A stretch of 64,000 nucleotides of DNA from the NCBI GenBank assembly GCA_003614675.1, contig ML002216.1:1-64000 (forward strand), in the 5' to 3' direction. Every line of letters begins with the position of its first letter. Position 1 is the first letter of the stretch. Source of the DNA: Dimargaris cristalligena. Its lineage: Eukaryota. The notes beneath the pieces were generated by a model. The model made no database searches, was not told the DNA's origin, and was given only the letters and a program-made list of their open reading frames with translations. The position numbers and the translations under genes are program-made. Of the stretch, positions 29,878-56,800 are shown piece by piece.

Positions 29878-32800
29878 TTACCATGAGAGGATTTCCTGGC
29901 TAGCGTCATTACAGCTCCTGGTACTGGCCTGGGCTTCATCGGCACTGTTGCTACCACAGGCAGAACCGGCGGCGTACTTATCAGGGTCGTCCGAGATGGC
30001 GGCCCGGAAGAGGCTGGCGCCGTACTTATTGTACATGGCAGTCACACCACCACCGCTGAGCAGGCGCTCTTCCATAAGGGAGAGACCGAAGGGGAAGGTC
30101 TTGCCACCGGCGTGGATAAGGCGCTCCTTAACGTCAATGCTGATTTCGGCACCCTCTTGGGCAATGTCGTAGAACTCGGGGTCCTTGAGGACGATTCCGA
30201 GCAGAGACATGTTGGGCTGGTTACGGGCGTAGATGAAGGCAAAAGACTTGGCAATGACGGCCTTGACACCGGCACCGCGGATGGCACGGGGAGCCTCCTC
30301 GCGGGAGGAACCGGAGCCGAAGCCCTCTTCACCCACAATGATGTTGAAGCCCTGCTTGACACGCTCGCGGAATTCGGGGCGCACGTGGAGGAAACAGCTC
30401 TCACCGAATTCCTCGTCAGTACCAGCACCGATGGCCTGGGCGGGGATAATTTGATCGGTATCGACGTGGTCACCGAAGCGCTGGACCTTACCAGTAATCA
30501 AAGTCGAGAAGGATCCAGTCGAGCTGTCCGTTTTCATGGGGCTACCGACACTGCCGCTGGTAGTGGTAGACTGGCCCTCGGGGGCCTCCTCGAAGGGCGA
30601 GGGGTTGGGCTCCGACACCACCACCTGGTCCACGGGCTTCTCGAGCCAGAGCTCCAGCATCTTCTGGAAGCGATCGTGGTCAATGGCGTTAAGCAGTTCG
30701 GTGGGGTCAGTCACAGCCATGTCGAAGCTGGAGACAGCTACTGTAGCTGCGCTGGCCAGGTTGGCAATACTACCGGGACCCATGCGGTTCTTGAAGTTAC
30801 GGTTCTGGGAGCTGAGCCAGACTTCACCGGCCAGGGCCTTATCGGCGGCCACCGCAATGCAGTAAGAGCAGCCAGGGGCACCAACGACGAAACCGGCCTT
30901 CTCGTAAGCAGACAGGAGGCCCAAGCGGCGGAGCTTAGCCAGGATGGGTACGGAGCCGGGGGTTACACGGCGCTTGCCATTGACAGTGGGGACCTTACCG
31001 GCCTTGAGACCAGCCTCCAGGACCAGAGCACCCATGATGAGGTCTTCCTCGGCCGTGGTACAGGCACCAATGAAGACACCGTCGAGCTTCATGTCCAGAG
31101 TGTCAAAAACGGGTACCACGTTATCGGGGGAAGGGTACAAGGCGACCAGGGGGTCGACGTCAGCCAAATTAATGACGTGGGTCTCGGCGTACTGGCAGTC
31201 GGGGTCGGCGCGGAAGTAGAGGGCCGAGTTTTTGTTATCGGGGTTGGTACGCTTGGAGATGTAAGAGGCGGTGATTTCGTCGGCCTCAAAGACACCAGCG
31301 ATACCACCGAATTCAGTAGTCATGTTGGAGATGGCGAACCGGGCGTCACAGCTCATGTACTTAAGACCGGGGCCGGTGTATTCCACGGCGCGTTCCATGG
31401 CCACGGTGTTACGCTTGAGCTTACCGAGCACGTACAGAATGATGTCCTTACCGCCCACACCGAAGCGGGGCTTACCCACGAAGCGGATGTTGACGGTTTC
31501 GGGCACCTTGAACCAGGTCTCACCAGTGACCAAGGGCATCACCACGTCGGCAGCCCCCAGACCCACAGCGAGGGCACCTACGGCACCGGCCGAGCAGGTG
31601 TGGGAGTCGGCACCAATCACCACCTGACCGGGCTGGGCGCGTTCGCGGTAGAACTCGGTATGCAGGATGGTATAGTTGGGGCGGTAAAAGTCCACCAGAT
31701 CGACCTCCTTGGCGAAGCTCTCCGACACGTTGACGAGGTGCTTCACCCGGGGTTGGTCCATAATACGGGGGTCCACGGAGTGGTCAATGGCCAGCCAGAA
31801 ACGGTCGTTACGGTTCACGCCGGGGCGGCCCATGAGATCGTAGGTCTTGTTCATGCCAATCCAGGTCAGCTCGGAAGCGACGGTCCAGTCGACCGAGACA
31901 CAGACCATATCACCAGGGGTGACGTGGCCAGGGGCAGGCAAATTGATGGCATTGTGGGCCAGAATCTTTTCGCAGATGGTCATACCACGGCGCTCGGTGG
32001 GGCGGTGAAGGAGAAGACCGCGGGGCACGCGGGCGTCGGCCGAGTTCAGGCCGCTCAGAAGGGGAAGGAGGGCCTTAATGACGGCATCACCCATCTCGAC
32101 AGTGGTGGCCTGGCCGCCCAAGTCACGGGTACGGATGCCGAACCCGTTGTACTGATCATCGTCAATTACGCGGCGTACGGCCTGCTCAATGGCGTTGGCC
32201 TCAGCCTCCAGACCCATGGAGTAGCGCAGCATCATGGCGGCGCTAAGAATGGTACCGATGGGGTTGGCAATGCCCTGTCCGGCAATATCGGGGGCGGAGC
32301 CGTGGATGGGTTCATAGAGACCCTTGCAAGAGCCCTTGCCGTCGGGGAGCCCACTGAGGGAGGCGGAGGGCAGGAGCCCCAGGCTACCGGGGATCACACT
32401 GGCTTCGTCGCTCAGAATATCACCAAACATATTTTCGGTGAGGATAACACCGTTTAGGAGCTTGGGGTTGCGGATCATGTGCATGGCGGCTGAGTCAACC
32501 AAGTGGTGGTCCAGCTTGATTTCAGGGAACTCCTTCTCGATGGTCTCGGTGACCACCTTGCGCCAGAGACGGGAGGTAGCCAGCACGTTGGCTTTGTCAA
32601 TGGAGTGAATGGGGAGGGGAGGGGACTGCTGCATGGCCAGGTTGGCGGCGCACCGAGTAATACGGCGGATTTCGTCGGCCGAATAGGGCATAGTATCGTA
32701 GGCGAAGCCGTCGACGTCGCCCTCCTTACGCTCACCAAAGTAGACACCTCCGATGAGTTCACGGACGATAATGTAGTCGGTACCGCGGACCACGTCGGCC

Positions 32801-33222
32801 TTCAAGGGAGATGAGTCAATTAAAGATTTGCTAATGAAGTAGACAGGGCGGATATTGGCGTACAGGTTGAGCACTTTCCGGAGGTCCAGAAGACCCTGTT
32901 CGGGGCGGGGACCGAGGCCCTTGCTGGGGTCGGTGGGATCGACGGGACGGGGCCACTGAGGGCCACCAATGGCGCCCATTAGAATGGCATCAGCCTCCCC
33001 CGCGGCAGCCAGAGTCTCTGGGGGGCAGGGGGAGCCAGTGGCATCGATGGCAGCACCACCAGCGAGAATGTGGCGGAAGGCAATCTGGAAACCCTGGGAG
33101 CGAGAGCGCTTTTGGGAGACCACTTGAAGCACACGGACGGCTTCGCGGGTGATTTCGGGGCCGATGCCGTCACCGGCGATGACGGCAACATTGTAGGTGC
33201 GGGGCTGACCAGTAGGGGCCAT
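29878..33222 (-). CDS. Fusion protein: 3-isopropylmalate dehydrogenase (Leu2/LeuB) + aconitase-family dehydratase large domain (LeuC/HacA-like) + swivel domain (LeuD/HacB-like)
   Basis: One intronless 1114-aa ORF. IPMDH motifs [48 protein letters not shown]. Dehydratase from MTICEKIL (31983) with DH, DSHT, GACT, GCSYC, NRNF. Swivel domain with [23 protein letters not shown]. Confidence 0.93.
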
Positions 33223-34191: not shown

Positions 34192-36005
34192 CTCCCTACA
34201 GCAGCAACCCCCCTCTTCTTCTTCAACAGTAGTTGTCACTCCCGCAGAGGGTTAGAGTTTGGGGCCTGGGCACTGGAGAGAGGGTGTTTACTACCCACCT
34301 ACATTTCCTCGACCAACGATTGTCTGATGCCCTGATTCTTCCATCCGATTCCAGGGCACCATTGATCTATTTTTTATGATATCAAATTGGCATGTCGGCC
34401 CAGGTTCTGGGGGGCATATCACTGCTTCTTCAAGAGATATATATTATACCTCCATAACTGGCAGCCAGAGATATTTGTCAATCCAACCGCAGATCATCCG
34501 CCCTATATTGACCTAATCCGACTCTAAATTTTTAATTTAGTCACCTGACCGTTAGAAGCAGCTAATTGTTGGTTTATTACTTATCTAAAGGTGGAGTAGT
34601 ATACATCTGCAGATATCGAATGGTGTGGGCGAGAGGCATTCCCATCAGGGGTGCAATTTATGCACAACCTAATAATTGAATCAGCGAAAAACTTGAATCA
34701 GCGCAATAAGCCTACTCACCCATACGTGTCTGCCTTATAAACCAATGCCCCCCTGTCGCATTAGAGGCGGACACGTCATATACACAGTTGTTACAGTATG
34801 GTGGTGGTATGGTGTTGACGACTATTGACAGTTGATCTATGGCCTTTGGCCGGGTAATTTATCACAAGGAAGTCGACTCCCCAAGAAAGGCATTCAATAG
34901 GTAGATGGTGTCCAGGGTCTGTTGCATTGGTATTTGTGACGTCTAGTTTTAGAGGTTAATAAGTTGCCAAAGATTCTATTTTATGGGGAATGCCAGGACC
35001 GCGGTGGGTGATGGACTGTCACTCCGTTTTGTCAGACTGACCTTGGGCTCAAACCACCAATCAAAATCTTTCCTTGGGCACATTTTAACCCAATTTGCCG
35101 CGCTCATTTTTTAACCTCTACAGTTACGGGCCCAACCAAACTATCCGCCCGCGGCATTAAACAGCCTTACTATACTTTAATGGTCAGGTGTCATTTTCTG
35201 GTGATTGCGGCAATCAGTAACGAGGGGGGTAAGAAGAAAAACATGTATATTTAAAATTCGGAAAGTAGTCGGTATGGCCTAGTACCCAGCCCGTCTAAGG
35301 GCATCTTGTCAGCGGAAGCCCTAGGAATCACTCTATATCAGGGGAGCACCACGGCTGCAAACGTTGGTGACAAGGGGAGATGGCTCGCGCCAATTTGTAT
35401 TAATCTTGTAACTGTTAGTTGATCTATTGTAACTACTTGGTATTGTAGTATATAATTTTCAAAGCGTATGGGTAATATTCAGCACAGCTGTATAAGACTT
35501 TGAATGGTATATGTACGGGATCATAGGCAGGTGATTCATTTTCAACTGGTAGTATTTGCCCTATCCAACGGATTATTCATTATGCAGCCTGGTTGAACCT
35601 CTCCCGTATTCCTTATATTACCCGACTGAAATAGTTGCAATTATCTGTTAACTGTCGGTTTGGCAATCGCAAATTTATCAACGGATTTAACTACTCTATC
35701 AGGTACTATTATGGATCCGCCTCTATTTATCCATTGAGTAGTAAAAAAAATCAACCTTCTTAACAATGCTTTCGTTTCCCATCACTCGAACCTCGCAATA
35801 ATAGACAATTGCATTGTCGTGTTATTAGGCCAACCTACTTGTTATAAATAGGCGATTTCCGGGCACCTTTTGTACAAATATGCTTGGCTAGAGCTACACC
35901 CGACAATTCCAGAGCATTTGGATTTCTTAACCTCGGTTTGTATTGAAGTACTCAAATATCCATTCGGTTTATCTCGTATTAGTTAAATTATCTCTTTATT
36001 GGGCT

Positions 36006-36449
36006 ATGGCGTTTCTTTCATTTTTTAACCCGCTTTCCAACTCTATGCCCGGCGATGCCCCCTCATCCATTCCACCCAGATTAAGTACCGCTAAGCCCCA
36101 TTCCGCACCCGACCTAACTGCCACTATATCATTGGTATCTTCGGGACCCGCTAACCTCACCGATGCTGGACTTACTGAAGATTACATGAAGCATATTATT
36201 TTTAGGAAAAATAGTTGTACGTTGGCTGATGGCATATCGTTTTATATAAATGGGACCACTGGGTCGACCAAGATCTCGCCAATTCACCAAAATTCCGCGA
36301 GTGCCTTCAATTTCGGAGTTAACGAACCGTCCCTCGACTTTCGTGTTCAGACTTTGGTGGTTGAGGTTGATTATCCCACAATCGAGCCCCCAAGAGGCAC
36401 CGATCCGGACGCCGGTGACAACTCGACCACTTCCCAGCCTCCCCGTTAA
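36006..36449 (+). CDS. Hypothetical lineage-specific protein
   Basis: ATG ORF of 147 aa with TATAAATA about 160 bp upstream. No recognisable family. Confidence 0.4.
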   Translation: MAFLSFFNPLSNSMPGDAPSSIPPRLSTAKPHSAPDLTATISLVSSGPANLTDAGLTEDYMKHIIFRKNSCTLADGISFYINGTTGSTKISPIHQNSASAFNFGVNEPSLDFRVQTLVVEVDYPTIEPPRGTDPDAGDNSTTSQPPR

Positions 36450-37943
36450 AGCCACAACTATACCCTCTTTTCGCATTGTATCGCTAGGGCCACACACCGA
36501 TTCAAATAATAGTTTTAATGCCAGGCTTTATCAATCGCCCCTGGTCGCCCAAACATCCTCTGGGCAATAGTCTTTACCCAACTGATTGGAGTACGCCTGT
36601 CTACGAGTGTCTTGTTGCTGTCAAATCCCGGCCTGAAATTCAACATGTTGTATTGGTACCCAATAAAGGCTAGGGTTTTTGTCGTATTGTTGTTAAAAAT
36701 AATTGCTGTAAATCGGACCTGATTTTTATTCTTGAAGTCTTTAATTTAGGTTGGTTGCAATTAGTTGTACCAGGCTTACTGAGTCCTGTCTACTACTGTT
36801 TTCGATTGATTTTCTCTCTCGAATCTATATGCACTTCCATCCTAATATCCATATGGGTGAATTTCAGTCGAACTATATAGAGTTTGGAATGTAATCTGTT
36901 TGGTAAATTCGGTGGAATTATATACTGTATACCTGTACTAAATTCTACTTATACGCCAATATACAAAGGGCCGCCGCTAAAAAGCGTTTAAATTGCACCC
37001 TTAGGTGGTACCAATCGAAAAAGCGAGGCCATCGGTTGAACTGGCCATGGTTCGCAATGTCTATTCCATGGTATATGCCAGTTGGCGGTGGAGGCAATTG
37101 GCGAAATGACCCTGCTAAGCAATTTTCCATAATGCATTAGGCAATACTGAGGTTGGCCCCCGGACTGCATTATCTTTAATGAATTTTCCAGCCAAATTCT
37201 TTAATTAAAGAATACTTAGGAGGTATAGGTATGAAAATATAAAAATCCACATCTTAAATCAAGTCCGAGTTGGTGCATGGTTATTAGCAAGGCAGGAAGA
37301 AGAACTATAGTGGGGTTGTAGAATCAATATAATAATGCCAATTGTATTACCATTGCCTAATTATACCAAAGTCGAATAGATGATTTTAACAGATTGATAC
37401 ATAGGGTATTGTCAGTTTCCGGCACCAATTTCAATATGACTAATCGGAATTATAGCCAGTCTAGAAAATACCAAAGATACTTCCCTGGCTGTACTATATA
37501 ATATAACCTGGCAATTTAGAAGTCAGAGCAGCTGTTTAAGCTAGCCAATTTCCATAATTTCCATTGAAATAAACAAAGGCATATGTCCACGGCCCCTCCA
37601 TTATTCACACTACTGAGACGTCATTATCATATGTATGGAATAACACAGCCTAACCGCCCTATTACCAGCCTTTATCCCTGTCCAACTTCTAAAAAGTAAT
37701 TTATTGAACTATTAACACGATTTATTTATTAAGCAGGAGTCAGAATATAAAAAGGGTGCTATCTCCAGCTACATATAATTACATAAATATATATATGAAG
37801 ATTAACCGGCAACATAAATTTTAAAAATACCACATTTAACCTGCACTTTGGCAGGCACCTCCAAGTCAGCTTTTTAAGTGGAGGCTGGGTTATTTGCCTG
37901 ACCATGGTCAGCCTCGGAGAGCTCATGGTCATGTTCATAGGCG

Positions 37944-39675
37944 GGGTAGTCCCTCAGGGCAAATGAGGGATACCCAGTGGCCCCCTGTTGAGGATGGCTA
38001 AAAGAAATTTCTCCCTGCATTATTGCAGGGGATGATAGGTCTGTCTTTGAATAGACAGCTGCCAAAAAAGGGGAGAAATGGCTGTGGTATGGCCATTGGG
38101 AAAAGAGAAGAGGAGGGGGGGAAATAGGGGATGGGGAAAGAAAATGAAAGCAGATAGGGTGAGAAGCATGGGGATATAATGATGAGTGTGTAAAGATTTT
38201 TCAGCATCTGTTATTAATGATAGAATACTTGGGCCAGCATTTGCTTGCCTATTTATAACCAATCAGTGATTTTATTAATCAGATGAAGTGTAAGTGGTAC
38301 CTTACTATCCCTTCAAAGGAGACTACCTTCATGTGGCCATTTCAAAACAGTAATGGTGTGACAATACTATTGGAATACTAAGGATGTAAAGGAAATAAAA
38401 CTGGAAGTAAGGGAAGAAAGCAGCTAGGGGATAGTAGGTACCTCTAGGTGGTTAGTTTTATTGAACTGTATTTTCGATGGGGTGAAATATAAGTAGCTAA
38501 GATGAATGATCTTATAATAGCAGAATAAACTAACATAATTAAATGAAACAGGATAAGATAAAAAACATATAGGAATATGTTTTTCAATATTCAGTGGCCC
38601 AGAAACTACCCAATCTATATCCGTAAACATCCCCTGAACTGACAAGTTAGGACCTTACATCATGATATTGAAATAGCTTGAAAGGAAAGTCTGGGCAGTT
38701 TCACAAATCTCTGAGCTTAGTACTTAGAAAGTGGAGTTGCTCAACTCTATAAATGCACTATGGCAGCCTGGCTAAATATTATGGATTATTTGGTGAATAT
38801 ATATCCCTTCAAAAATTGCACCTATTAAGTATCTACATCTATGTCCTGGCAAGCCAGCAGGTAATCAGCCTTAGCCCATGTATCCTTTCCCAGTTTCTAT
38901 TATCTAGCTACCAATACTATTTTCTTTAGTATATAGTATTTGTTGCCTGGGTTAACTACTCTTAGTCTATTAAGAGTCCTGAGGATAGGCTTCTAATGGT
39001 AGGTGGGGCTCAGACTCAGCCAAGTGGGCTGCTAGTATCAGGATGGGGGTATAGTACTAATAAATAAAGGATCAGTACCAGTATATGCAAGGGATATGCA
39101 GTAGGCATACTTACTAGTTAATGTGAAGGGATGAGCATATATAGAGTTTATTGAGGTAAACTGGGGGACACAGATAAGCTGCCATTCAACCAGTCCTAGT
39201 GGGGCTAGTTATATGTATGCAGGGGACTACTCTAAAGGGAGGTCCCCAAAGGAAGATATTACTAAGACTATTGATGGATAACTTACTAACTGGATAGTAT
39301 AGGGTATAGAAGACTTTGGCTAGGAACTGGAAGAGTTATTAGATTAGCCCAGGAGTGAATAGTGGATTCCAGAGTCCAGAAGGAAAGGGTTATATAATAT
39401 AGGAGGATCCCATAGTACTGGGGGTGACTATGGGAGGGTAAATATGGTGCTATAAGGCCTAATAGGGGTGGGTAATCATTAAGTCTGGATTTAGGTTGGA
39501 TTAGGAGGGTTGACAGTGACAATAGAATTGATTGTATATAATTTATCATTAACCCATTTTGATGCAGTCTCCAAATTAATCAAATTAAGATATGTCCCTC
39601 ACAACATTGTCACATTGACCTTTGAGTACTATATAGTGGATCTTACTATGTTCTTTTAGACATTCACCAATTCCT
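37944..39675 (-). pseudogene. CpG-depleted decayed sequence, probably a degenerate spliced gene or repeat
   Basis: Only 2 CG dinucleotides counted in ~1730 bp. A minus-strand frame at ~38660-38810 reads FEGIYIHQIIHNI*PGCHSAFIELSNSTF*VLSSEICETAQTFLSSYFNIM followed by a GTAAGG donor-like site. Confidence 0.45.
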
Positions 39676-40472
39676 CGAGCTTTTAAACAACCCCAATAAA
39701 AATATGAAATCATAGGCATTTTATCCTTGTTCTGGGAAGTGGAGAGGGGTGGCAATATTCAGTAGCATTATTATTACCGTATGGTCTGTATAGACAATGG
39801 TATCCAGGCTGACTGACGGATTGTTAAGTCATAATTCTAGGATGCTTGTGTACAAACAGGTAGCATCTCTGCATTGGTATTCATCTATATCTATAGCCGC
39901 CTCAATATCCTACTTTGTTCTCGTACCATGGTGTGTATTCATTGGGACTTGCTTGATATCATCCTTTAATTGGACTTGTCAATGTTGACGAGGTTGCATG
40001 GTATACATTCTTTCAGTGAACTTCAGCGCTGCCCTATCCGATTTTCAATGATATGTGTATGAGAAAGTAGTCGGGGTAGTTAGTTTTAGCCAATAATATC
40101 CACCTCATAAAACGATGATTTCTTTATACATTCATATTGACCATCTTCCGTATCTACTTTTGTCAACATATGGATGAAAGATGTTGTGGCGGCGGTTCTA
40201 TTGACTAATAGCTCCTCATTAGCACCTCCTGAACCGCTGCGGCATTCGACCTACCTGCATACAAATATAAATAACCTAGGGGCTCCCTCCAGCTTAAGCT
40301 AAATTCTAAGTTGTTTTATTAGTGACGGCTACGGATTGTTGCCAATTTTTTTTTTTGATATTCCTCGATAGGGAACGTTTATATTTCCCTCCAAATACCG
40401 AGTCCCATTTTTTGGCGACTAATATTACATACATTACTTGTTTATTGATACATTAGGTAGCTATTGGTAGCA

Positions 40473-41145
40473 ATGCTCCCTTTGGATTCTCCCAGCGGCA
40501 AATTGTCTTTTAAAGTAGGAGGTAAGTGTGCGCATTATATAGTGGTGTATACAGTAAATAACTCATTATTTTAAGACCTGAATGTCTAATTACTGCCACA
40601 TAACTCTACAATGTCGAAATTAACATCCCAGTTAAATTAAGACCCATCTTTGGCAATACATGACCCAAAAATCGATACCAGTGGTTGGTTCGAACTTTAC
40701 AGCACTCATTCATCATCCCCTAAGATATTCGTGCCTATACCCTATATTGCTAGACAAAGTTAATTTTATCGACTGGCTGTTGCCTTACATTGTACACTCA
40801 GGCGTGATTATACGCATCGATGAAGATACTAACCAAATAGTCATCAAAGATAATTTTAAGGGGTCTCTCAAATGGCCATTGGACGGAATATTCATGAGAA
40901 ACGCTGAAATCCAATCTGAAAGTGCCGCGGGCAGTAAACCCATCCCTACTGCTAATAAAATGTTATTATGCTCAGCTGATCGATCAGCCACCTGCTTGCT
41001 CTCATCTGGTTCTCCGAAACACCTTTCCCCAATGGATCATCTAGGTATGTCCGACCTGATCAACGAATCCCAAACCGTTGATTATACCCGATGTGTCCCT
41101 ACAGCTGCAGCTCAATCTCAACGGGAAGACTATCTAGGATCATAA
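40473..41145 (+). CDS. Small Tudor/SH3-barrel-like protein, family member 1; exons 40473-40521 and 40754-41145 (146 aa)
   Basis: MLPLDSPSGKLSFKVG|DKVNFIDWLLPYIVHSGVIIRIDEDTNQIVIK. GTAAGT...TAG phase-1 intron. TATAAATA near 40266. Confidence 0.6.
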
Positions 41146-42434
41146 ATTGGGACCTGGTGATTATCATCACTTTTTGGTTTTCCAACACACTTATGTCGCC
41201 ATTCGCCTAGTTAGCTTGGCGCGCTGATGTGTACCACTTAGAGTATAATGATCGAATCAATAAACGGCGCCAGTCGCCTTGTAAATACTAGACGACGGGT
41301 TACCATTCAGCACGACCAGGATCTTGTTTTTGTTGGGGATATCAGCAAAAAATAATACGGAAGACCCCTATGATGGTATTTATCAGGTATGTTTCGACCA
41401 ATTAAAGCCCTTTGTAAATATAGAGTGCGGGAAAACGATTATCCACCAGGGTTGGGGCGGTTCTTCACCAGTTTTCACAATGTCTTGAGCCCTTAGCCGA
41501 CTGAGGCATCTTAGGTAAATATAAATGACAGAGGCGGATAATGTAGAACAATGTACCTTATCGTCCAAAGTGATAGTAGTAAAGTGACATTTTACCTTTC
41601 CTAATACATTGCCTGAAATAAAAATTCCGGGTAAAGCAGTTTATTAGCCAGCCAGGGTACCCAGTGGGCAATGTAGTACCTTATGAAGTAAGGGGTATAC
41701 AATTTACCTAGGTGAGCGTGGGCGACCAGTTAGAATCATGGGGGCCCTCCTACATATCGCGCCTTGCACCTATACCATTCTTTAATCATCCAGAAGACCC
41801 AGGTAATACTTGGTTGGAGGAGACTCTGATAATAAAATTTGCGAATGTAGTCCTCAATTACTATTCAATCATCTCATCATTCCGTTAGTTATCTTTCTTT
41901 ATAGTAACTCTTGGTTTCGTTAAACCATGTGCGTGTTTCCTGTTGCAATATATCTGTCAACGTAGCGAATACCGTTTGAACCATATACGATAGCCTAGAA
42001 TTGCAGCATGGCGGCATCAATAGCTGTATCGTTGATGCTTTATGATTCTAATCATCCTACAAGTAAATATGCTTTACTAAACTGGAAAGGGAGGGAACTG
42101 GTTCAATTTCTCCATCACACCAGTATGTGTGAATACATTACAAGAACCTTAAACCACGCAGTCACTATTGCGAGGATGGCATCACTCGTTCTCCCACAAG
42201 ACACTTTTCAAGTTTCAAAATATAAAAGGAGCCAGTCTTTCCAGCCAGCTCATCTATTATTATTCCCTAATTATATTAATCTGTCAACTGCTGTGGACAC
42301 CAACTAGATTTATTTCAGTTCTTTCCCGACATCATTCAACGTTTGCTCCTCGCGGCCAATTCGGTTATATAGTCTCCTACAAACTACTTTACCAACGTTA
42401 CTCTCGGCAACTCGATATTCGATCGGCTTTCAGC

Positions 42435-42863
42435 ATGCATACACCGGATCCCCTCAGCACTTGGTGTGATCTGAGTTGTGGAGGTAGGACTCGTAAATGA
42501 GAGTAGTTTTTAAGTGCCTTAAAGATATCGGGTCAGAACCGGTCTTCGTACTTTACGCTTGGTATTTTAATCTGTATTGAGCTAACCGCCTCGCATCAGT
42601 AAACATAAAGCGCCTTGGTCTAACCTATTTCAATTATTATATTCCAAACTATATTTATGGGGTCAAATATTCTCTTACTCCTCGACCATTTGTTTCTTAC
42701 CATGGCAGATGTGATCGATATCATCTTTATAGACAAACCAGGCTCGCGCTATAAAGCCATGTTCATTGAATATATTGACTTCGTCGACGAAGTCGTCCTG
42801 CGCCTTCAAGATGGTTACAGAAGATCATATAGAGCTGACACAATTCAATACTATTTGGATTAA
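42435..42863 (+). CDS. Small Tudor/SH3-barrel-like protein, family member 2; exons 42435-42483 and 42709-42863 (67 aa)
   Basis: MHTPDPLSTWCDLSCG|DVIDIIFIDKPGSRYKAMFIEYIDFVDEVVLRLQDGYRRSYRADTIQYYLD. GTAGGA...CAG phase-1 intron. TATAAAAG at 42221. Confidence 0.6.
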
Positions 42864-43781
42864 CAGTCAAAAGTGAGGCCTTTCTCGCTCTGTACAAGGT
42901 GCCTAATCCAGATCTGCTTGTCAGCCTACTTACTTTACCTGTCTGATTTTAGTCCTCCATAATAAAATACCCTTTATCATCCTGTGGATCACGCGCTGAT
43001 TTATACACGTAAATCAATCACATAATGTCCTAACAAAAATAACACCCACTAATTTAGCCACCCATCATTAGCTAGGTAACTTGTGGGTCAAACAACCGAT
43101 TGCGTCCGTTGTTGGGGCGTCCGTCGCAGCAAGATTGAAGGAATGTGTGCAGTATAGGTTATGTTTTGGCAGTCTGGTATGGGTGGAGTAATATCCAATT
43201 GTCCAATTTTTAGAAATAGCTCTTCCGACTATCTATCAGCCAATTGGGGCGGGGTGTGATATCCGAATCTGATGGGGAGGAGCCCACCATACAAAAATGG
43301 GGTTAGGTCAAATGTTGAGAAGGGATAAGCCCCATCTGTAATTATTCACCAATAACCATTGGTTAGATTTTTTTACTACTGTACGTTAGCCATACAGAGT
43401 CGTAAATGTCCATTGGCTATATTTATTAGTGCACCCATTATACATATCGCATTGGCCGATTTTGATCCCTATCACTTGAATTGTACAAACCTCACATTGA
43501 CAATAGGGATACTTGGTTGAAAGGACCAAGATTTACGCGTGCCCTTTGCATAACAAAATGGTGATAAAAGGACGGGCCAATTCCCCTTTATTGTTTTAAA
43601 AATATCCAAACAACTCGCACACCTCGTCCGTTTAACCATTTCTCATTTGCATTATACCTTAACTACCGTGGTAGGTATCGCCACACCTTCGACTGGATTT
43701 CGCAGACTTGTTTTCGACAAAACTCCTTTCGTTCTTTCTATATCCACCCCACCCAGCCCCACCCCTTCACTCTCCAAAGTA

Positions 43782-44744
43782 ATGGCTGAACCAATTGTTG
43801 GTAAACCCGGCTGGGCGATGGCAGTTCTAATGTTCTGTAGTCTCCCGTTGCCAGTCATGGGCGCTCTATTGCCCAATCAATATGAAAATGACTCGCGCAA
43901 CCTACCCCAGAGCACCAGTAGTCAAAGTGAAAATGAGCTTCAAATTTGGAAAAGAGTCCTAGAAAGGCGTTTCGATGGTTCGGAATTTGTTAGCGCTGCT
44001 CACTCTGACCCTAACGATCCCAATTGGCAGGCTACTTTAGCTTTCCTTCGGAATAGAGGTCTACTACAAATTGGGAGCTTTAATCCTGGACGAGTCCAGG
44101 CCCCATCCGGACCATTAGCTGGCCCCACCACGGCGATTCGACCCGCTGGATTGCAACTAGGGCAAACCGGCACCAACAACCAAAGGCAATCCTTCACCCC
44201 ACCCTCCGAACAGATCCCCCAATATTCAACCCTCTCGGCCTACCCAACCATCAGCGAGATCATTGAGAAGTGCCGTATTATTTCGGGCCAGGCATTCTCT
44301 CGGCAACACCTAAAAGCGATGCCCTCGCAGAAGGTCAAGGACCAAGTAACGCGTTCCTTTAGTGAGCATAGATTAAAACTATTTAAAGATATGCGTTTGG
44401 TCATTGGTGGAAAGGGCAACATACACTTTACAGAATATTTCATTGATAAAATAACCCGGGCCTATAAACGGGTTATAAGGTATTCGTTGACACCCTACTT
44501 CATCTAAGCTTTGGATTGGGATACTAGCTACCAGGCCATTACCCTCAATTATTTGACCAACGAAAATGGCTACCGCTGTGAAGATCTGGTCCAGCTTAAT
44601 AGCGGGAGCTCGCCATACCTAAGTATTCGTACATTTCCGATGGAATATAGTATGGAAAACATGAGACACATCATGGAAACCTATCTGAGGAAATCAAATC
44701 AAAACCAAATGTCCTATTGGGCATCATATCGCAAAAACAATTAA
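43782..44744 (+). pseudogene. Lineage-specific, possibly secreted protein with one in-frame TAA (44505-44507)
   Basis: Hydrophobic leader WAMAVLMFCSLPLPVMGA. ORFs 43647..44507 and 44511..44744 are in the same frame, separated by a single TAA. Confidence 0.5.
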
Positions 44745-46705
44745 CCCCAATCGCCTAATTGAATAAACCAGGTAGAAAAATTTATACATTTCACCATTAT
44801 TATAATTATTATATGCTATTTTGCTGCTCAATTCCCCCAATGAACTTTCAACCACGCCTCCCGACAGAACGGTACTCAGCTGTGGATTGGGTCGTGTTTT
44901 ATTGGTATTTAAGTATTTAGAATAAATATGTGTTTTTCTTTACCTACCTACCATGTACTTTGAGGTTATAACCAAAGAGTAGTGTACACTGATTCGATAT
45001 TAGTTAATTTAATCTGTATATTTTGTTGTATGGTTCAAAAGATGTTTTGTAGGCTGCAACGATTATTTATTAATAAAATGCCTGGAAAAGGCAGGGTATT
45101 TTCTCTTGATTAGCAATATGCCCTGGTCAAGCTGCCTGACAAGGCCTCTAACTTATTAAATTGGAGAAGTAAGTACAGCAAGCCATTACACTCCTTTCCA
45201 ACTTTCTCATACTTTAGTGACCGGGACTTGTACCTAGAACAGCCATATATTATAATTGGTTCTGAGTCAGCAGTTGCTCTTTAGGTTGGGCAACCTTTTC
45301 ACAGTATTAAATGTGATGGTTTACTATGGAATTGGGGCTTAAGTATGGTATTGTTTTACACTTGTAAAATATCTCACCGAAATTCTCGACACGATACTAA
45401 AGAAAAGGTGGCACGTCAAAGTAGGCTTCTGATAGTCCTTTATTGAAGGTGATATGAACTCCGCCCCGACCATTAAGATAAAGACCACAGAACCAAGAAA
45501 AATGTAAGTGAAGGGTATAGGCTATAAACTCACAGAATTTTCCTGGTGGAGTTTTATCCAACCTACTAGCATAGGTCCGAGGCAAGACTATTTACCATTG
45601 TACAATGTTAACCCTTGTTCAATAATTCTGAAGAGAGTAGCTTACTAAACAACCACGTATTTTATTTGCACCTGTAGTCATCCATCCTCACAAAACTATG
45701 TTAAGGTATTCTTCAGAGGTTACCAAATTACATTAGGGGTAAAAAGGCCGAACTCATAGGACTATTCAGACGTGTTCAATAAATATATCAAATTTAGGTA
45801 TGCTAATTCCACAACAGCTGTCAACCTAAATACACAGTACCATTGCTGGAATAGTTTCCGAGTCTGGAACACGGACGGTTTAAGTTATAGCATCTCTTTA
45901 TTGCCTATATTCACGGTCTTTGCCACTGATTTTCCAGTAAATTCGGCTCGCTTTATCACCATTAAATACAATTAAAAAAGAACTGCAGACGAACATGTTT
46001 ATACGTGCTTTACTGCGACAGCTAGTGGTCCAAAATGATATGTGTATCTTTATTCAAGCTATGGAAGTATTAGGTGCAAGGCTGATCCGGAACTCTAAAC
46101 TTGTCAATGGCCGATTTAAAGATTACTTGGTGCAGAAGCTATATATTTTAATACCCTATTCAACTCCTGGTTTAATTGAAGGGCCGATGTTGATTTTACG
46201 TTGATATGGGTCAATAGAACAGCGACTTAATGGGAAAAATCTTGCCGTATTCCAATCGCTTATCATTCAGTCACTGGGGTGGCTTCACCACCACTCAATG
46301 TCGCTGGGGTGATGGGGAATTTTCCATGATTGTTCGAATAACATATTCCATGAAGAACACCAATGGTCATGTTCCAACATGAATGATTCCATTCAAGGTT
46401 GATATGGAATGAAAAGACCCATTCAATCCATTACTACCGTGTCATTTAATGAAACACTCAACTGTTATGGCTGCCGTGAAGTGGTTGGAATTTGTAGGGG
46501 TATATAAAGCAAGTCATCCAGACCATGAGCCCAGACTCCACCAAACTCGTATCTTTTCACCACTAACCGCCCCAGCCTTCTCTAAGCATCCGCCTGTCTT
46601 GCCAATAACAACCGCCGGACACCACTCTCTGCACAAATTTACCATTGATCAATTTAAGTATCGAGCGTATCAAAACCCTAGCTTGTTCCAACAGTTGTCA
46701 ACGAG

Positions 46706-47598
46706 ATGGACAATCTAAGACCGACTGGTAGGTTGCGTTCAATTAATGCCTGTCTATTAGGCATATTAGAATTGTTAGAATATAGCTCGGTCCTGGATTT
46801 TTTCAGTCTCTGGTATGAACATAGTACAGGGTCTATCAAATGTACAGTGTAGTATACTATTCAAAAGTCTTGGAGATGCACCAATTTTAACCAATTTATT
46901 TTATTATCCTCTTATAATTTCTTTGGTCGGTAGATTACTTTTACTATGCCAAATATACGTCCCCTAAAAATATTACTCTGGGACAGGTCTGTCATATTGA
47001 TAGAACTTACAATATCGTAATCTCCCAACTGGGTGATGGACCACAACTCTACCTAAGTGCCAATACCTGCTCTTTCCGGGCCGTAAGGGATATCCCTGTT
47101 GAATTATTTGACGATGGGTTCCCAAGTTTTATGGGTGAATTTCATACCGTACTACCCAAGAACCCATCTCTACCGACTTCAATGAGTTGGGGAGACGCCA
47201 ACGCGCTGCATGAGTATTTGCGGATGCATTTTACCCCCCCGCCACCGGGAAATACATTAGGACCGTCGGTTCCTAGCATGGTTCCCCCGAGCCACAACAT
47301 CTTTTATTGGCCCAGCAGTCCCACCAATCGCAACAATCTGCAGTCAATGGGATCAGTTCTAGAATTAAGCAATAACCTATCATCTCATAATATTACTCCT
47401 ACAGTCTCGATGTTGAATAACATGAACATCCACTCCTCCCCAGCTTTGTTCCCCAAGAACGGACTGTTACCCCCATTTATGATCAACCCGTTTGAAGCGA
47501 GCCAGGGCCCATTCTTACCCCCGGTTAGCAGCGCCGTGATAAGCTTTAACGGTGATGACAATGGGGAAGACCAGCAAGCGCCGAATAATGATAGTTAA
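46706..47598 (+). CDS. Tudor/SH3-barrel-like family member 3 with a P/N/S-rich C-terminal extension; exons 46706-46727 and 46934-47598
   Basis: MDNLRPT|DYFYYAKYTSPKNITLGQVCHIDRTYNIVISQLGDG. GTAGGT...TAG phase-1 intron, in frame with ORF 47131..47598. TATATAAAG at 46501. Confidence 0.55.
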
Positions 47599-49282
47599 TA
47601 TGCCCCGTTTATGAGCAATCGTCCTCGAAAAACCAGGGAATTTTGGCAACAGTTAAATAAAAAGTACCTTAGGGGACTCGTGGTGGATTGATCACCATCC
47701 CCTGTTGCAGCCCCACTCACTAAAATTGCCCTCGATTTCTGAAGCATAACACTAAGGATGTTACCCCAACATCATCGGATGGGCCGAATGAAATATATTC
47801 GGAATAGATTTAGATTTAGATAGTTTTGTCGAAATAAAGCACTAGATACCCATATCACAATTGTGACATTAAATTCCCAAAGGGCTTTAATCTCATCTGG
47901 CCATAAATGGGGGGATATTTTATATAATTACGGCTTATATTTTTTTATTTTTCTCGATGCCCTAGAGTTGAGCAGGTCGACTTATATGTAAATCAGTAGC
48001 CAGCTGGAGTTACCTTGGTCTCTGCGGGTAAGCCTCTCTGAATAAGGGATAGTAAATGGGCTTAAACTTGACAGTCCACGACCTAGTGCGTGGTGGAACA
48101 GACACCCGATTACATTGGGCTGGGCTCATTATATTCAAGACGAACAGGGGGGGGGTTATTATTTAACTATACTACCTTAATAACAGCTAAAGCTGTTCGG
48201 GCGCTATCCGCATTATATATTAGTACAAGGGATACGGAGCTGACTAAAACCCCTTCTTTATAAAACTACTCATCGGAATTGGCATTGCCTAACCGGCCCT
48301 TTAAGGCATTCCACACCACCTTCATTATAGTTGGTGAAGGTCGTGGTTTGGGTTATTAATTATGGTGGAAATAATTCCCAAAAACCTCTAATAGATTGTT
48401 ATTGGACTAAGTTGAAGTCACGCATGACCTACGTTAGCCCCCCTGCAGCACACACAGGCTTCGCTTTTACAAAAATGAAAGCAACTCACTGCCTTCCATC
48501 TTCACTCTTCTTGTTGAAATCCGTTGAACCAGTTTGATTACTTAGGCCAGATTTTACACATACCCAGCGAAACTGTCATCTAATTGTCTTTATTCATTAA
48601 ACCTCAGCCGAACCCCCAGGTCGATCTTCACTACCAGTAAAAGGGGGCGAAAGGATAGCAGTATCCGTATCGGTGGCCATTAATAGTGCACACATTCTCT
48701 GGAATTGGTGTTTTACAAGCAGCACTTCCCCAACGAAACTGTGCGCAATAATAAATGCACGCCCCCCATTTCCACGACACTAGTAGAATACAGGATTATC
48801 TAGATTAGGGTAAATGATTATAGACAAAGGAACTCACCTCTACCTTGGCTATCCCCACCCTCCCTGTCACCGGCCGTTAAATCTTTGTCAAGGCAAACTA
48901 ATTTTTAATTTCAGACAAGGTTAGTGTATAATAGTTGAAAAGGCCAAGTGTGAGTGACCTGATGGTCAGTAGTTGGGAAATATACCATAGGTGCCAATAA
49001 TAAAACTATGAAGGATAAACCGACTGGGAATGACGAGCAGGGTTCACCCAGAGATATGCATAAAAATACACGGACAGGTGTATCCGAGGGTTATAGGCGA
49101 GGGAAATTGTACAGCGGTGGGGCATTATAATAGTTATAGAAACAATATAAGCTAAACGGCCCATCGTATAATAAGAGGGTTAATAAAATATACATGGCCA
49201 CACAGTTCCCATCCAGGCAGATCAAACTATTTACTTCAGCAAGCAATGCTTTAGGGCCACTAAGTAACACCGGAGCATCTGT

Positions 49283-53805: not shown

Positions 53806-56800
53806 TCAGGCCAGTTGGAGACCGAATACCGACTCAAACATACGACTAATCGGGGCCCGGAAATCATTGTACACCACATTGACTAGCCAGATATCCTCCG
53901 AAGTGGCCCGCAGAAACCGCTCGGTGGCGGAGCCAGGTGGGGAGAGCTTGGCCCATTCATCCCAGATCTGGAAGGCCTCGTCCTATTTTTATACATGTAG
54001 AGGTATAGATGTAGATGGGTATTAAACACGCAATCAGAGGCCGAATGTATTATCTTCTATATTAATATCGTCCCAAAACCACGACCATACTGTCGACCCA
54101 GGCATGCAGCACAGTTGGTAATTGCCACCTGTAAAGTGTTACCAACCCAACGCACAAAACGGAATCCCCACAGCCACTTATACTTAAAAGGAGGGGGTGT
54201 GGTCACCACTACCTTCTCGGGAACAGGAGCTCCATTGACCCATGAGACCACCCCCGCCCACACAGACCAGCGGCAGCATCCCAATCCAATCCACAGCGCT
54301 TGTATATTCCATCGCAACCCCCCCCCCCACACTCACATTTTCCATTGAACAAATCTAATCATCTCGGACGCATCGCCGCCATACGAAAAATGGAAAACGT
54401 AATAAGGGGATACCTTCCCCCCTGCCAACCCTTCTGTCTTCAACCACCGCCGTATGACAAGAACCATCGGACCCACACCATTCACGGGAGGTAAAACCCC
54501 ATCACACATAGACCGTATATATAATAATACCCTAACCACATAAACAACTCCGCTTCAACTGAACTTACCTTCCACGCTAAAAACCCGTCCCGGTCGACCA
54601 TGGAAGCCTGTACCACCTCCCTACCCGGGAAAATGCCCCAAGTGACGGCATTGGCCATATTAGCGTTCCCGTCGTCCCCACTGGCGGCGTCAGCTGATTC
54701 TGCCGCTGCCGCGGAGGGGAGAAGGAGGGGGGGCGCAAACGATGACTCAAACTCGCCCCGTTTATTGCCCGCCAGGAACGTGATCCAGGGGTCGTTCTGG
54801 AATTGGGTCTGTTGCAAGGTTCGGTAGTCGGTGGCCGAAATAAAAAACTCCACAAAGGGTTTTTGGTATACCAGACCCCCGGGCGGTCCCCAGCCTACGG
54901 CGGGGTCGGCACTGGGTTGGCCGTCGACGGGGGGCTGGCTGGCGATGGTCAAAATGGACCGTTCGGTAATAAGCTGGAGCAATCCCCGTTGGATTGCTGA
55001 AGTCTCGGGGCGAATGGTTTCGAACAGTGACCAGGGTAGGCAGGGAGGAGCGGCTGATTCCGGTAAGGGGGCCGCCCTAGTATGGACATGGGCAGTGGCC
55101 GCGGCTGAGGGCTCGGGGGGTCCCTGCATAAAGCGCGCAAACAGGGATGTGAGATCCGCCAGCTGGGTCGGGCGGCCCCACCACGAGGTCGCCTGCCGCC
55201 CGGTAATCGGGAGCACACTGCCTCCATACGCCGAGTACTCCCCGTAGGCGGGGGAGCTGGAATCCCCCCAGCGGCCGTTGGGAAACTCATCCCAGGTTGT
55301 GACGATCCCAACGCTATCCTTCCCTTGGTTCCTGGACGACACCGGCATATTGATCATCTCGCCCACTAGGGCTGAATCATTCGAAGCAGCTGGTCGTCCC
55401 TCCCCGGTGACCAGCTGAATGCGCGCATCACTCGTGACTAGGGCCCGCGCCCGCGATGCACTCTCGGCGGCAGCACCACCACCACCCCCTGTGGCAGGAG
55501 TAACCCCGTTCAAAACGGACGGTAAACATTGCTCGGGCACAATGACCCGATTGGTGGGACCATTAAGGCCTGTTGGAGTCACCCCACGTAGCTCCGCGAT
55601 AATCCGGCTAACAGAGGATTCTAGATTGAGGGTAGTCATGTGGAAGTGGTCTAGACGCAGTTCGCGGTGCAGTGTGCGGATCAAGTTCAAGGCCAGCTGT
55701 TCGCCGTAGGCCTTGACTGCGCTATCGTCCAGCTGGATGGGTGCGAGATCACTAAGGACTGAGGCGGGAACGTGGACTTGGCAGAGCTGGGCTATCCGGC
55801 GGAAACTCTGGTACTGCTGAATTGGTAGAATGTTGGGAATGATGGGAACGCTAATGTCTGGAAGTTGGTAATAGCGGTAAGTAAATTATAAGGGGCCCAA
55901 AAGACGGATGCGTTTAGACCCAGGAATCAAATTATTCGAGTGGCCTCTATAGAGCCGGGAAGCCCAGATAACATCACCCCTACGTGGCATGACCAGTTTG
56001 ATTAGGCATTTACAGCGGTATCTTCTCTCCCTCCTGCCCACCCGAGTATTCGAACTTACCCTTGCTCCGACTCGCCCGGTACCAGTCGATAAAGCGCTGC
56101 GCATCAAAGAACATTTGGGTGATTATGAAATCGGCCCCCGCATCGACCTTTTCCTTGAGGTACTGCAGCTCCACCTCCGAGGGAGATACTGTAGCACCGT
56201 CGCCGAAGGAATGGGAGAGGGGTGAGGCATTTGCCAGGGTCATGGATGCATCGGGATGGCCTTCGGGGTATGCCGCCACGCCGATGCAAAAATAGTCACC
56301 GTAGGTTTGACGAATATACTTGACGAGGTCCACGGCATGCACCAGAGGCCCTACTAAATCGGCACTGGATGCCGACCCGTCTTCCTGGGTAGGGATGGTT
56401 GACCGCGGGGCATCTCCCCGTAAGGCTAGAATATTACGGATGCCGATGGTCTTGGCTGCAGCGAGGGCCTGGTCGAGTGCCGTGCGGTCCATATTGGTAC
56501 ACGTAAGATGCATCAAAACATCGACTCCCTGGATATCCTGAATCAACTGGCATAGCTCGAGGCTGCGCTCGGCGGTGCTGCCTCCCGCGCCCCAGGTCAC
56601 GCCCACAAAAGTCGGACGAAGACTGGCCATGCGGGTTACCCGGGCCGAGAGGTTAGCAAGACCCTATAGATACGGGAAGTCGGTGCCATAGCAATGGCAA
56701 TGGTACCACCAGTAGCCAAAATAGGGTAGGTTAGCAATGGGTATAATAGGGTGTATAAAAGGGCGTTTCCGTCTATTGGTCGCCGGGAAGCACACAGGTC

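Follow-up and report, generated by a model that had tools for sequence, protein, structure and literature searches.

A predicted LEU2-isomerase fusion protein of Dimargaris cristalligena belongs to a widespread and apparently uncharacterised family

Few genes of fungal genetics are better known than LEU1 and LEU2, and their pathway, leucine synthesis, has been proposed as a target of antifungals and herbicides. A window of 64,000 nucleotides of the genome of Dimargaris cristalligena (contig ML002216.1 of assembly GCA_003614675.1, positions 1 to 64,000; the whole stretch that was analysed) contains a gene for a protein of 1114 amino acids, in which a 3-isopropylmalate dehydrogenase (IPMDH) of the LEU2 type is followed by an iron-sulfur isomerase of the aconitase superfamily. 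The locus raises the question of whether one polypeptide joins two consecutive steps of leucine synthesis, and what kind of isomerase it carries. We assign a probability of roughly 60% to the reading that the protein is a cytosolic bifunctional isomerase-dehydrogenase acting in leucine synthesis. Judging by sequence comparison, the gene is not unique but belongs to a family of fusions that is old, widespread and apparently uncharacterised.

The initial annotation described a single uninterrupted polypeptide, and this description holds: the minus-strand open reading frame (ORF) runs from the ATG at position 33222 to the stop codon at 29878–29880 without internal stops, and all 14 motifs quoted in that annotation are present. 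The plus-strand frame over the same interval is not open, being interrupted by many stops. A Pfam scan identified Iso_dh (residues 11–381, E = 3.6e-125), Aconitase (E = 5.5e-75) and Aconitase_C (residues 956–1014, E = 2.2e-14). The dehydrogenase motifs RPEQGLL (106), NIRP (123), VRE (153), GVYFG (159), DKANV (209), GDILSD (267) and HGSAPDIAG (307) each occur at one position, as do the isomerase motifs DH (480), DSHT (539), GACT (719), GCSYC (784), NRNF (807) and GSSRE (971). The 3.3-kb open frame, the three strong domain matches and the end-to-end alignment with 88 other full-length proteins put chance far out of consideration. Since the homologues align over the whole length without a break, the gene probably has no introns.

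The two halves had been thought to be connected by a short linker. A segment of this kind is present at residues 390–413, but it does not look like a floppy tether: the consensus GLN...R.LL..RP..RRPMT is partly conserved across the family alignment, and the predicted local distance difference test score (pLDDT) of the segment is 83–96 in an AlphaFold2 model built from the 89-row alignment (mean pLDDT 86.4; predicted template modelling score, pTM, 0.85). The pLDDT is low solely at residues 1–4, 881–903 and 1087–1114, falling below 50 in the last two of these regions. The high pTM suggests a fixed arrangement of the three modules rather than beads on a string.

The N-terminal half is the LEU2 orthologue of the organism. 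It scores 450 bits with the leuB equivalog model TIGR00169 (cut-off 353.2) and keeps, at residues 106–112, the RPEQGLL loop of the E-x-G-L-L type of isopropyl recognition, which is identical in 52 of the 89 family members; both features bear out the assignment to the IPMDH type made earlier. Identities as homoisocitrate, tartrate or isocitrate dehydrogenase were tried and rejected, as this half fails the cut-offs of the respective models (for homoisocitrate dehydrogenase, 223 bits vs. 500 with NF040619 and 216.4 vs. 540 with NF040626). Residues R115, R125, R154, Y161, K210, D243, D268 and D272, which we take to have substrate-, metal- or NAD-binding or catalytic roles, are invariant or near-invariant in the 89-sequence alignment. 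Among proteins shorter than 612 amino acids, the nearest relatives are the stand-alone LEU2 proteins of Mucorales, Umbelopsis, Basidiomycota, Saitoella and many chytrids (60–64% identity), and fused proteins of other fungal phyla show about the same identity in their dehydrogenase domains. Fungal LEU2 and bacterial LeuB (TIGR00169) share the substrate loop and the conserved residues at catalytic positions with the N-terminal half, and LEU2 interleaves with it in the tree; they are, however, stand-alone enzymes, whereas their counterpart here is the N-terminal domain of a 1114-residue protein with a conserved junction to an Fe-S isomerase. The predicted activity is NAD-dependent oxidative decarboxylation of 3-isopropylmalate.

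The C-terminal part was initially annotated as an intact [4Fe-4S] dehydratase with its swivel domain and, in effect, as Leu1 fused to Leu2. The first statement is sound, since the three Cys ligands and the DH, DSHT, NRNF and GSSRE motifs are all present; C721, C785, C788, R974 and S972, the catalytic Ser of GSSRE, are near-invariant in the family, and DH, DSH, NRNF and GSSRE are invariant or near-invariant. The identification with Leu1 has to be abandoned. The C-terminal half scores far below the cut-offs of the Leu1/LeuC-type models TIGR00170 (150.3 bits vs. 560.25) and PRK05478 (180.8 vs. 510), is 27–30% identical to Escherichia coli LeuC and to the canonical LEU1 of Gonapodya, Zygosaccharomyces and S. 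japonicus, and belongs to a separate clade. Saccharomyces Leu1, a LeuC-LeuD fusion and a cytosolic Fe-S client, shares with the Dimargaris enzyme the superfamily, the order of the large module and swivel domain, the three Cys ligands and a C-terminal extension whose last residue is W, in agreement with the targeting signal for cytosolic Fe-S assembly, but represents another subfamily and has no fused dehydrogenase.

The best NCBIfam model for this half is PRK07229 (NF005558), with 307 bits over the whole length against a cut-off of 612. The archaeal-type large-subunit models PRK00402, TIGR02086 (IPMI_arch, where IPMI denotes isopropylmalate isomerase) and TIGR01343 (hacA_fam) give 300.6 bits (cut-off 385), 276 bits (410.15) and 273.7 bits (385.7), respectively, and the homoaconitase models TIGR00139 and NF040615 (methanogen HacA) 197.6 bits (529.9) and 226.8 bits (550). 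The closest solved structures for both modules are the isopropylmalate/citramalate isomerase (4kp1/4nqy and 3vba) and homoaconitase (4kp2 and 2pkp) of Methanocaldococcus jannaschii, with E of about 1e-56 for the large module and, for the swivel domain, 2.9e-24 to the homoaconitase small subunit (HACN, 2pkp) and 8.7e-22 to that of IPMI (3vba). These are two-subunit enzymes of about 33% identity, whereas the family described here is fused, scores below the cut-offs and carries FMPG or AIGA in place of YLVY or YLRT in a small-subunit loop.

An exhaustive phmmer search with the isomerase half over 1.84 billion representatives showed a step in identity: family members have 46–64%, one protein 38% and all others 30–36%. 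Named stand-alone members are those of Scheffersomyces stipitis (677 aa), the oomycete Achlya hypogyna (695 aa) and a metagenome-assembled genome of Candidatus Schekmanbacteria (663 aa). In a quick 65-row tree with support from the Shimodaira-Hasegawa-like approximate likelihood ratio test (SH-aLRT) and without bootstrap, the eukaryotic sequences form one clade (SH-aLRT 99), which is joined by the bacterial proteins P0248 and P0267 (SH-aLRT 100, stem 0.68). The combined clade is nested among prokaryotic sequences passing the PRK00402, hacA and IPMI_arch cut-offs, while P0248 itself is likewise under the PRK00402 cut-off (333 vs. 385). LEU1 and LeuC form the outgroup. The true PRK07229 proteins make up a clade of their own (SH-aLRT 100); these 'aconitate hydratases' (PRK07229/TIGR01342, fused large and small modules, about 650 aa) have the same domain order as the C-terminal half but are about 30% identical to it. 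The isomerase half belongs to a distinct, highly conserved subfamily inside the archaeal-type LeuC/HacA enzymes. Its large module is 92.6% identical to that of Tieghemiomyces, 75–79% to those of other fungal phyla, 65–67% to those of Physarum and the nucleariid Nk52, and 52% to that of the bacterial homologue. Between fungal phyla this conservation exceeds that of the LEU2 half (60–68%), which argues for a core function. The next-nearest group in the tree comprises prokaryotic proteins of about 600–650 aa (P0288, P0292, P0295 and P0305) of permuted structure, with the LeuD-like domain before the LeuC-like module.

The fused architecture had been noted as being without a known characterised example. 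No characterisation was found, but the architecture is not rare: 89 of the 120 best database matches (the window protein included) are full-length fused proteins of 1030–1135 aa, aligned end to end and drawn from the majority of the early-diverging phyla of fungi and from some protists. Among the matches listed, the fusion occurs in Dimargaritales (Tieghemiomyces, 84–85% identity; Dispira; Dimargaris), Kickxellales, Harpellales, Glomeromycotina, Mortierellomycotina, Endogonales, Calcarisporiella, Entomophthorales, Syncephalis, chytrids, Blastocladiomycota, Neocallimastigomycota, Neolecta, Nk52 and Physarum. A long-branch group of fused Pezizomycotina proteins (Fusarium, Clonostachys, Verticillium, Pestalotiopsis and Aspergillus thermomutatus) has 47–50% identity. 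Full-text literature searches returned no description of the fusion, although a survey of fungal gene fusion and fission (Leonard and Richards, 2012, PNAS) may list it; excerpts of papers on Mortierella alpina, Phycomyces leuA, the branched-chain amino acid genes of Aspergillus nidulans, diatoms and Alternaria do not describe it.

Some members of the family are larger still. Seven listed proteins of 1340–1819 aa (P0096, P0099, P0101, P0104, P0110, P0111 and P0113) add HMGL-like domains. Four of the seven were scanned, and in P0096, P0099 and P0113 a LeuA-type synthase catalytic domain (452–523 bits with NF002086) is followed by leuB and then by the same isomerase. The synthase domain spans roughly the first 380 of the 516 model positions, and the leucine-binding regulatory domain is absent; the 1473-residue protein of the amoeba Leptophrys vorax (P0113), for example, scores 522.6 bits over positions 4–379. 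P0104 retains just the C-terminal part of the catalytic domain (positions about 197–440). The LeuB and isomerase halves of the triple fusions (P0113, P0096, P0099 and P0110) stand in the same order as in the Dimargaris protein, are 47–50% identical to it and fall in the same clades; the difference lies in the N-terminal synthase domain, which the Dimargaris protein lacks. The LeuA-LeuB-isomerase chain would comprise the whole 2-oxoacid elongation cycle in operon order. The likeness of the B-C-D domain order to a bacterial operon, pointed out earlier, is real, since it matches E. coli leuABCD, and the order LeuA-LeuB-LeuC-LeuD of the triple fusions is that of the E. coli operon. Five other proteins of 471–573 aa (P0400, P0403, P0413, P0428 and P0477), one of them filed under Apophysomyces, combine bacterial-type LeuD and Iso_dh domains; these could represent genuine LeuD-LeuB fusions, the merging of gene calls or contamination.

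The bacterial relatives are fused LeuCD-like proteins encoded at 75 loci (L002–L077), mostly of Myxococcota and also of Planctomycetota, Zixibacteria, KSB1 and Candidatus Schekmanbacteria, and are 43–52% identical to the aconitase half over about 665 aa. Like P0248, they form the sister group of the eukaryotic isomerase halves and have the same large-swivel fusion, but carry neither a dehydrogenase domain nor a terminal W, and a neighbouring dehydrogenase, if any, is of the PRK03437 rather than the LEU2 type. An IPMDH-like gene lies nearby at 14 of the 75 loci, an alkylmalate-synthase-like gene at 19, either at 26 and both at 7; where at least 5 kb is available on both sides, either neighbour is found at 11 of 29 loci. 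The dehydrogenase adjacent to L022 passes the 3-IPMDH cut-off of NF002898 (397 vs. 393). In three genomes of the Myxococcota type (G001–G003, of which G002 is the genome of L015) the Aconitase-domain genes are limited to an AcnA-like aconitase and the fused LeuCD-like enzyme, the sole gene there of the LeuC-like kind.

The proposed cytosolic location is well founded. The IPMDH fold begins at residue 11, according to both Pfam and alignment to solved IPMDHs, leaving no room for a presequence. In addition, the initial annotation had overlooked a possible targeting signal: the protein ends, after its predicted disordered extension, in LSW. According to an excerpt of a preprint (bioRxiv 10.1101/2023.05.19.541488), the targeting complex of the cytosolic iron-sulfur protein assembly (CIA) machinery recognises a C-terminal [LIM]-[DES]-[WF] tripeptide in its clients, including yeast Leu1, and LSW fits this pattern. 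The terminal W is present in 88 of 89 full-length homologues (LAW in 44, LSW in 10, and others). It is missing in the bacterial homologue and in P0107, the one eukaryotic protein among those checked whose N terminus resembles a presequence. Insertion of the Fe-S cluster is probably the task of the CIA machinery, which would recognise LSW.

As a cytosolic bifunctional enzyme, the protein would catalyse, in a single chain, both the second and the third committed step in the synthesis of leucine. The C-terminal two thirds, consisting of the LeuC-like module and the LeuD-like swivel domain, would convert 2-isopropylmalate to 3-isopropylmalate, which the N-terminal third would then oxidatively decarboxylate with NAD+ to 4-methyl-2-oxovalerate. 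To our knowledge all IPMDHs dimerise, and the protein would be expected to dimerise through this half. We infer the isomerase substrate, like the CIA dependence and dimerisation, indirectly: isopropylmalate or a close alkylmalate is suggested by the LEU2 and LeuA fusion partners, by the bacterial gene context and by the small-subunit loop at residues 930–933. In M. jannaschii this loop reads YLRT in homoaconitase and YLVY in the isopropylmalate/citramalate isomerase, whereas the fused family has FMPG (83 of 89 members; FVPG in one Aspergillus sequence) and the window protein AIGA, none of which contains the Arg for binding a third carboxylate. Channelling of 3-isopropylmalate between the halves, or pulling of the isomerase equilibrium by the dehydrogenase, could follow from such an arrangement.

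Several observations weigh against this assignment. The isomerase half is under every NCBIfam large-subunit cut-off, so that its substrate is not backed by membership of any curated family. The five Dimargaritales sequences all have FMPG replaced, by AIGA in three (the window protein and two relatives), SISS in one and HCGS in one, and replacement is confined to this order. Among the bacterial relatives, 49 of the 75 loci have no pathway neighbour within the flank examined, and the adjacent alkylmalate-synthase-like genes match every named synthase weakly (189 bits). The isomerase type is retained as a stand-alone protein in Scheffersomyces stipitis and as long-branch fused paralogues in Pezizomycotina (among them Fusarium, Clonostachys, Verticillium and Aspergillus thermomutatus), lineages that presumably also carry ordinary LEU1 and LEU2, which hints at a second function there. 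M. alpina has an annotated 381-aa IPMDH (P0129) that is 89% identical to the N-terminal half of the fused Mortierella protein P0034; because it diverges only at the junction, it is a truncated model of the fused gene. Finally, for the window locus itself the public protein collection holds just a 701-aa product starting at Met414 (P0032, 29878–31983). M. alpina is also reported to have a canonical LEU1 homologue, with E = 0 to yeast LEU1 in Table 1 of PMC8880518, so the fused-family isomerase is not always the sole IPMI, and the isomerase half may be redundant or have a second substrate.

These facts give some substance to the strongest rival explanation, which we regard as unlikely, though by no means negligible: the isomerase half would act mainly on another 2-alkylmalate, such as citramalate or ethylmalate in the elongation of pyruvate or 2-oxobutyrate, or a substrate specific to Dimargaritales, with LEU1 encoded elsewhere in the genome and the N-terminal half a working LEU2. 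Besides the canonical LEU1 of M. alpina, the stand-alone and divergent fused copies in Ascomycota and the loop change in Dimargaritales, it draws on the dual isopropylmalate/citramalate specificity of the closest solved relative (4kp1, 3vba), on the lack of the LeuA leucine-feedback domain in the triple fusions and on Arabidopsis IPMI, the substrate range of which is set by small-subunit differences according to an excerpt of PMC7308503. Yet its fusion partners, the LEU2 orthologue and, in other eukaryotes, a LeuA-type synthase recognised by the isopropylmalate synthase model (453–523 bits), tie the isomerase to the leucine branch; the large module is very highly conserved, which is more in keeping with a core pathway than with a side activity, and no curated model points to an alternative substrate. 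A search with E. coli LeuD against longer proteins listed 120 matches that were bacterial or metagenomic or, among named fungi, almost only from Ascomycota, and is uninformative on LEU1 of Dimargaritales and Kickxellomycotina. The named fungi outside Ascomycota in this list were one Gonapodya and one Apophysomyces LeuD-IPMDH entry.

It is highly improbable that the halves are made as separate proteins, from two transcripts or from an internal start at Met414. Such an arrangement would account for the 701-aa public product, for the absence from the collection of any protein of 30–1950 aa with the N-terminal half at 100% identity, and for half-models in relatives, namely P0067 of Dimargaris cristalligena (737 aa), P0077 of Martensiomyces (777 aa), P0121 of Catenaria (720 aa) and P0129 of M. 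alpina. The frame is, however, open across the junction in the window and in 88 other full-length proteins, and in transcript-derived homologues (Physarum; TRINITY assemblies) a single ORF covers the two halves. The half-models are cut off within the conserved junction or the IPMDH fold, as is typical of gene-model truncation: P0077 starts mid-domain, P0067 30 residues before the junction, and P0129 diverges in the last residues only. The conservation and predicted order of the junction also speak for a single chain.

Least credible of all is a lysine-pathway pair of homoaconitase and homoisocitrate dehydrogenase, because, although hacA_fam and methanogen HacA match the isomerase half about as well as the IPMI models do and the best-scoring solved small subunit is that of homoaconitase (2pkp), both scores are under their cut-offs, the N-terminal half is orthologous to LEU2, passing leuB and failing the homoisocitrate dehydrogenase models, and the loop lacks the Arg of YLRT.

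The bifunctional leucine enzyme remains our preferred reading. The loop change in Dimargaritales is not a sign of general decay, because the remaining isomerase is highly conserved. The dehydrogenase loop also varies in the other four Dimargaritales sequences (RAELVLL, RAETGIL, RAEQILM and RAEAGML), while the window protein keeps RPEQGLL. Tieghemiomyces parasiticus encodes two paralogous fused proteins, P0002 and P0005, which are 84% and 75% identical to the window protein and have the loops AIGA and HCGS, respectively.

The history of the fusion was addressed with a tree of the IPMDH domain (IQ-TREE, LG+G4, SH-aLRT only) built from 73 named sequences picked by hand, of which 43 are fused, 4 triple-fused and 26 stand-alone; the Paraphysoderma row, a domain piece under 300 aa, was dropped, leaving 72. 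Stand-alone LEU2 proteins are scattered among the fused forms in a species-like pattern. The LEU2 of Mucorales and Umbelopsis is sister to fused Jimgerdemannia (SH-aLRT 99), that of Saitoella to fused Neolecta (SH-aLRT 99), and chytrid forms of both kinds interleave; the window protein lies inside a Dimargaritales clade (SH-aLRT 99). The fused or stand-alone state changes 10 times on this tree, and at least six of the changes are forced by well-supported branches. Constraining 25 stand-alone rows to group together worsened the log-likelihood by 306.9 (p = 1.1e-7 in the approximately unbiased test), for a group that was named after the tree had been seen; two long-branch rows and one truncated model were left out of this test. 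For fungi, the trees of the isomerase half and of the IPMDH domain have congruent topologies, and all family members share a homologous junction; repeated fission is therefore a more economical explanation than the same fusion arising several times. Fission would accordingly have given rise to the stand-alone LEU2 of Mucorales, Basidiomycota and Taphrinomycotina, and the fusion itself appears to be old and vertically inherited through fungi, with representatives in the nucleariid and Physarum. More tentatively, and with somewhat less than even odds in our estimation, the fused LEU2-isomerase (in some protists the whole LeuA-LeuB-LeuC-LeuD) could be ancestral in fungi and their relatives, separate LEU2 genes having arisen by repeated fission after takeover by a bacterial-type LEU1, and the loop having been re-tooled in Dimargaritales.

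Such re-tooling would point to a changed substrate range in these mycoparasites. If the majority of early-diverging fungi obtain 3-isopropylmalate from this distinct isomerase fused to a dehydrogenase, the history of the leucine pathway would be one of replacement and repeated gene fission rather than of simple vertical descent, and metabolic reconstructions seeking LEU1 and LEU2 separately would misread the genomes of these fungi; several public gene models, that of the window locus included, already split the fused gene in half. A confirmed bifunctional enzyme would also offer a natural test case of whether tying an equilibrium-limited Fe-S isomerase to a pulling dehydrogenase gives channelling, and would add a protein with a clean C-terminal signal to the CIA clients. 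The features of the gene are listed in Table 1.

Table 1. Features of the fused gene and its product, in window coordinates
Feature	Position	Strand	Evidence
Whole fused gene, 1114 aa and stop codon	29878..33222	-	ORF; aligned end to end with 88 full-length homologues
3-isopropylmalate dehydrogenase (LEU2-type) domain, aa 11-385	32068..33192	-	Pfam Iso_dh, TIGR00169 leuB, tree
Junction segment, aa 390-413 (24 residues)	31984..32055	-	Partly conserved, predicted ordered
Aconitase-family large catalytic [4Fe-4S] module, aa 414-845	30688..31983	-	Pfam Aconitase
Cys ligands C721, C785, C788	31060-31062, 30868-30870, 30859-30861	-	Near-invariant in family alignment
Variable linker from large module to swivel domain, aa 846-904 (disordered 881-903)	30511..30687	-	pLDDT, no alignment consensus
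Swivel (LeuD-like small-subunit) domain, aa 905-1086, GSSRE at 971-975	29965..30510	-	Pfam Aconitase_C; 2pkp and 3vba alignments
Putative substrate-recognition loop, aa 930-933, AIGA	30424..30435	-	Alignment: family FMPG
Disordered C-terminal tail, aa 1087-1114, ending in LSW	29881..29964	-	pLDDT below 50

The neighbouring genes are of the housekeeping kind and code for V-ATPase subunit d, a MYST acetyltransferase, a CLC channel, an Mtf2-like protein, methylenetetrahydrofolate reductase (MTHFR), a protein kinase and a kelch protein; a secondary-metabolite cluster context was ruled out on this basis. Scans of the window for tRNA genes and tandem repeats found none. The region 36000–48000 is AT-rich, with a GC content of 0.385–0.42 compared to 0.53–0.60 in coding regions, and has few long ORFs, with no Pfam matches in those tested. 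The MTHFR gene extends over two long ORFs on the minus strand (54482–56663), with the catalytic part at 56010–56663 and the remainder, together with the S-adenosylmethionine-binding regulatory domain, at 54482–55885; the two ORFs are presumably two exons.

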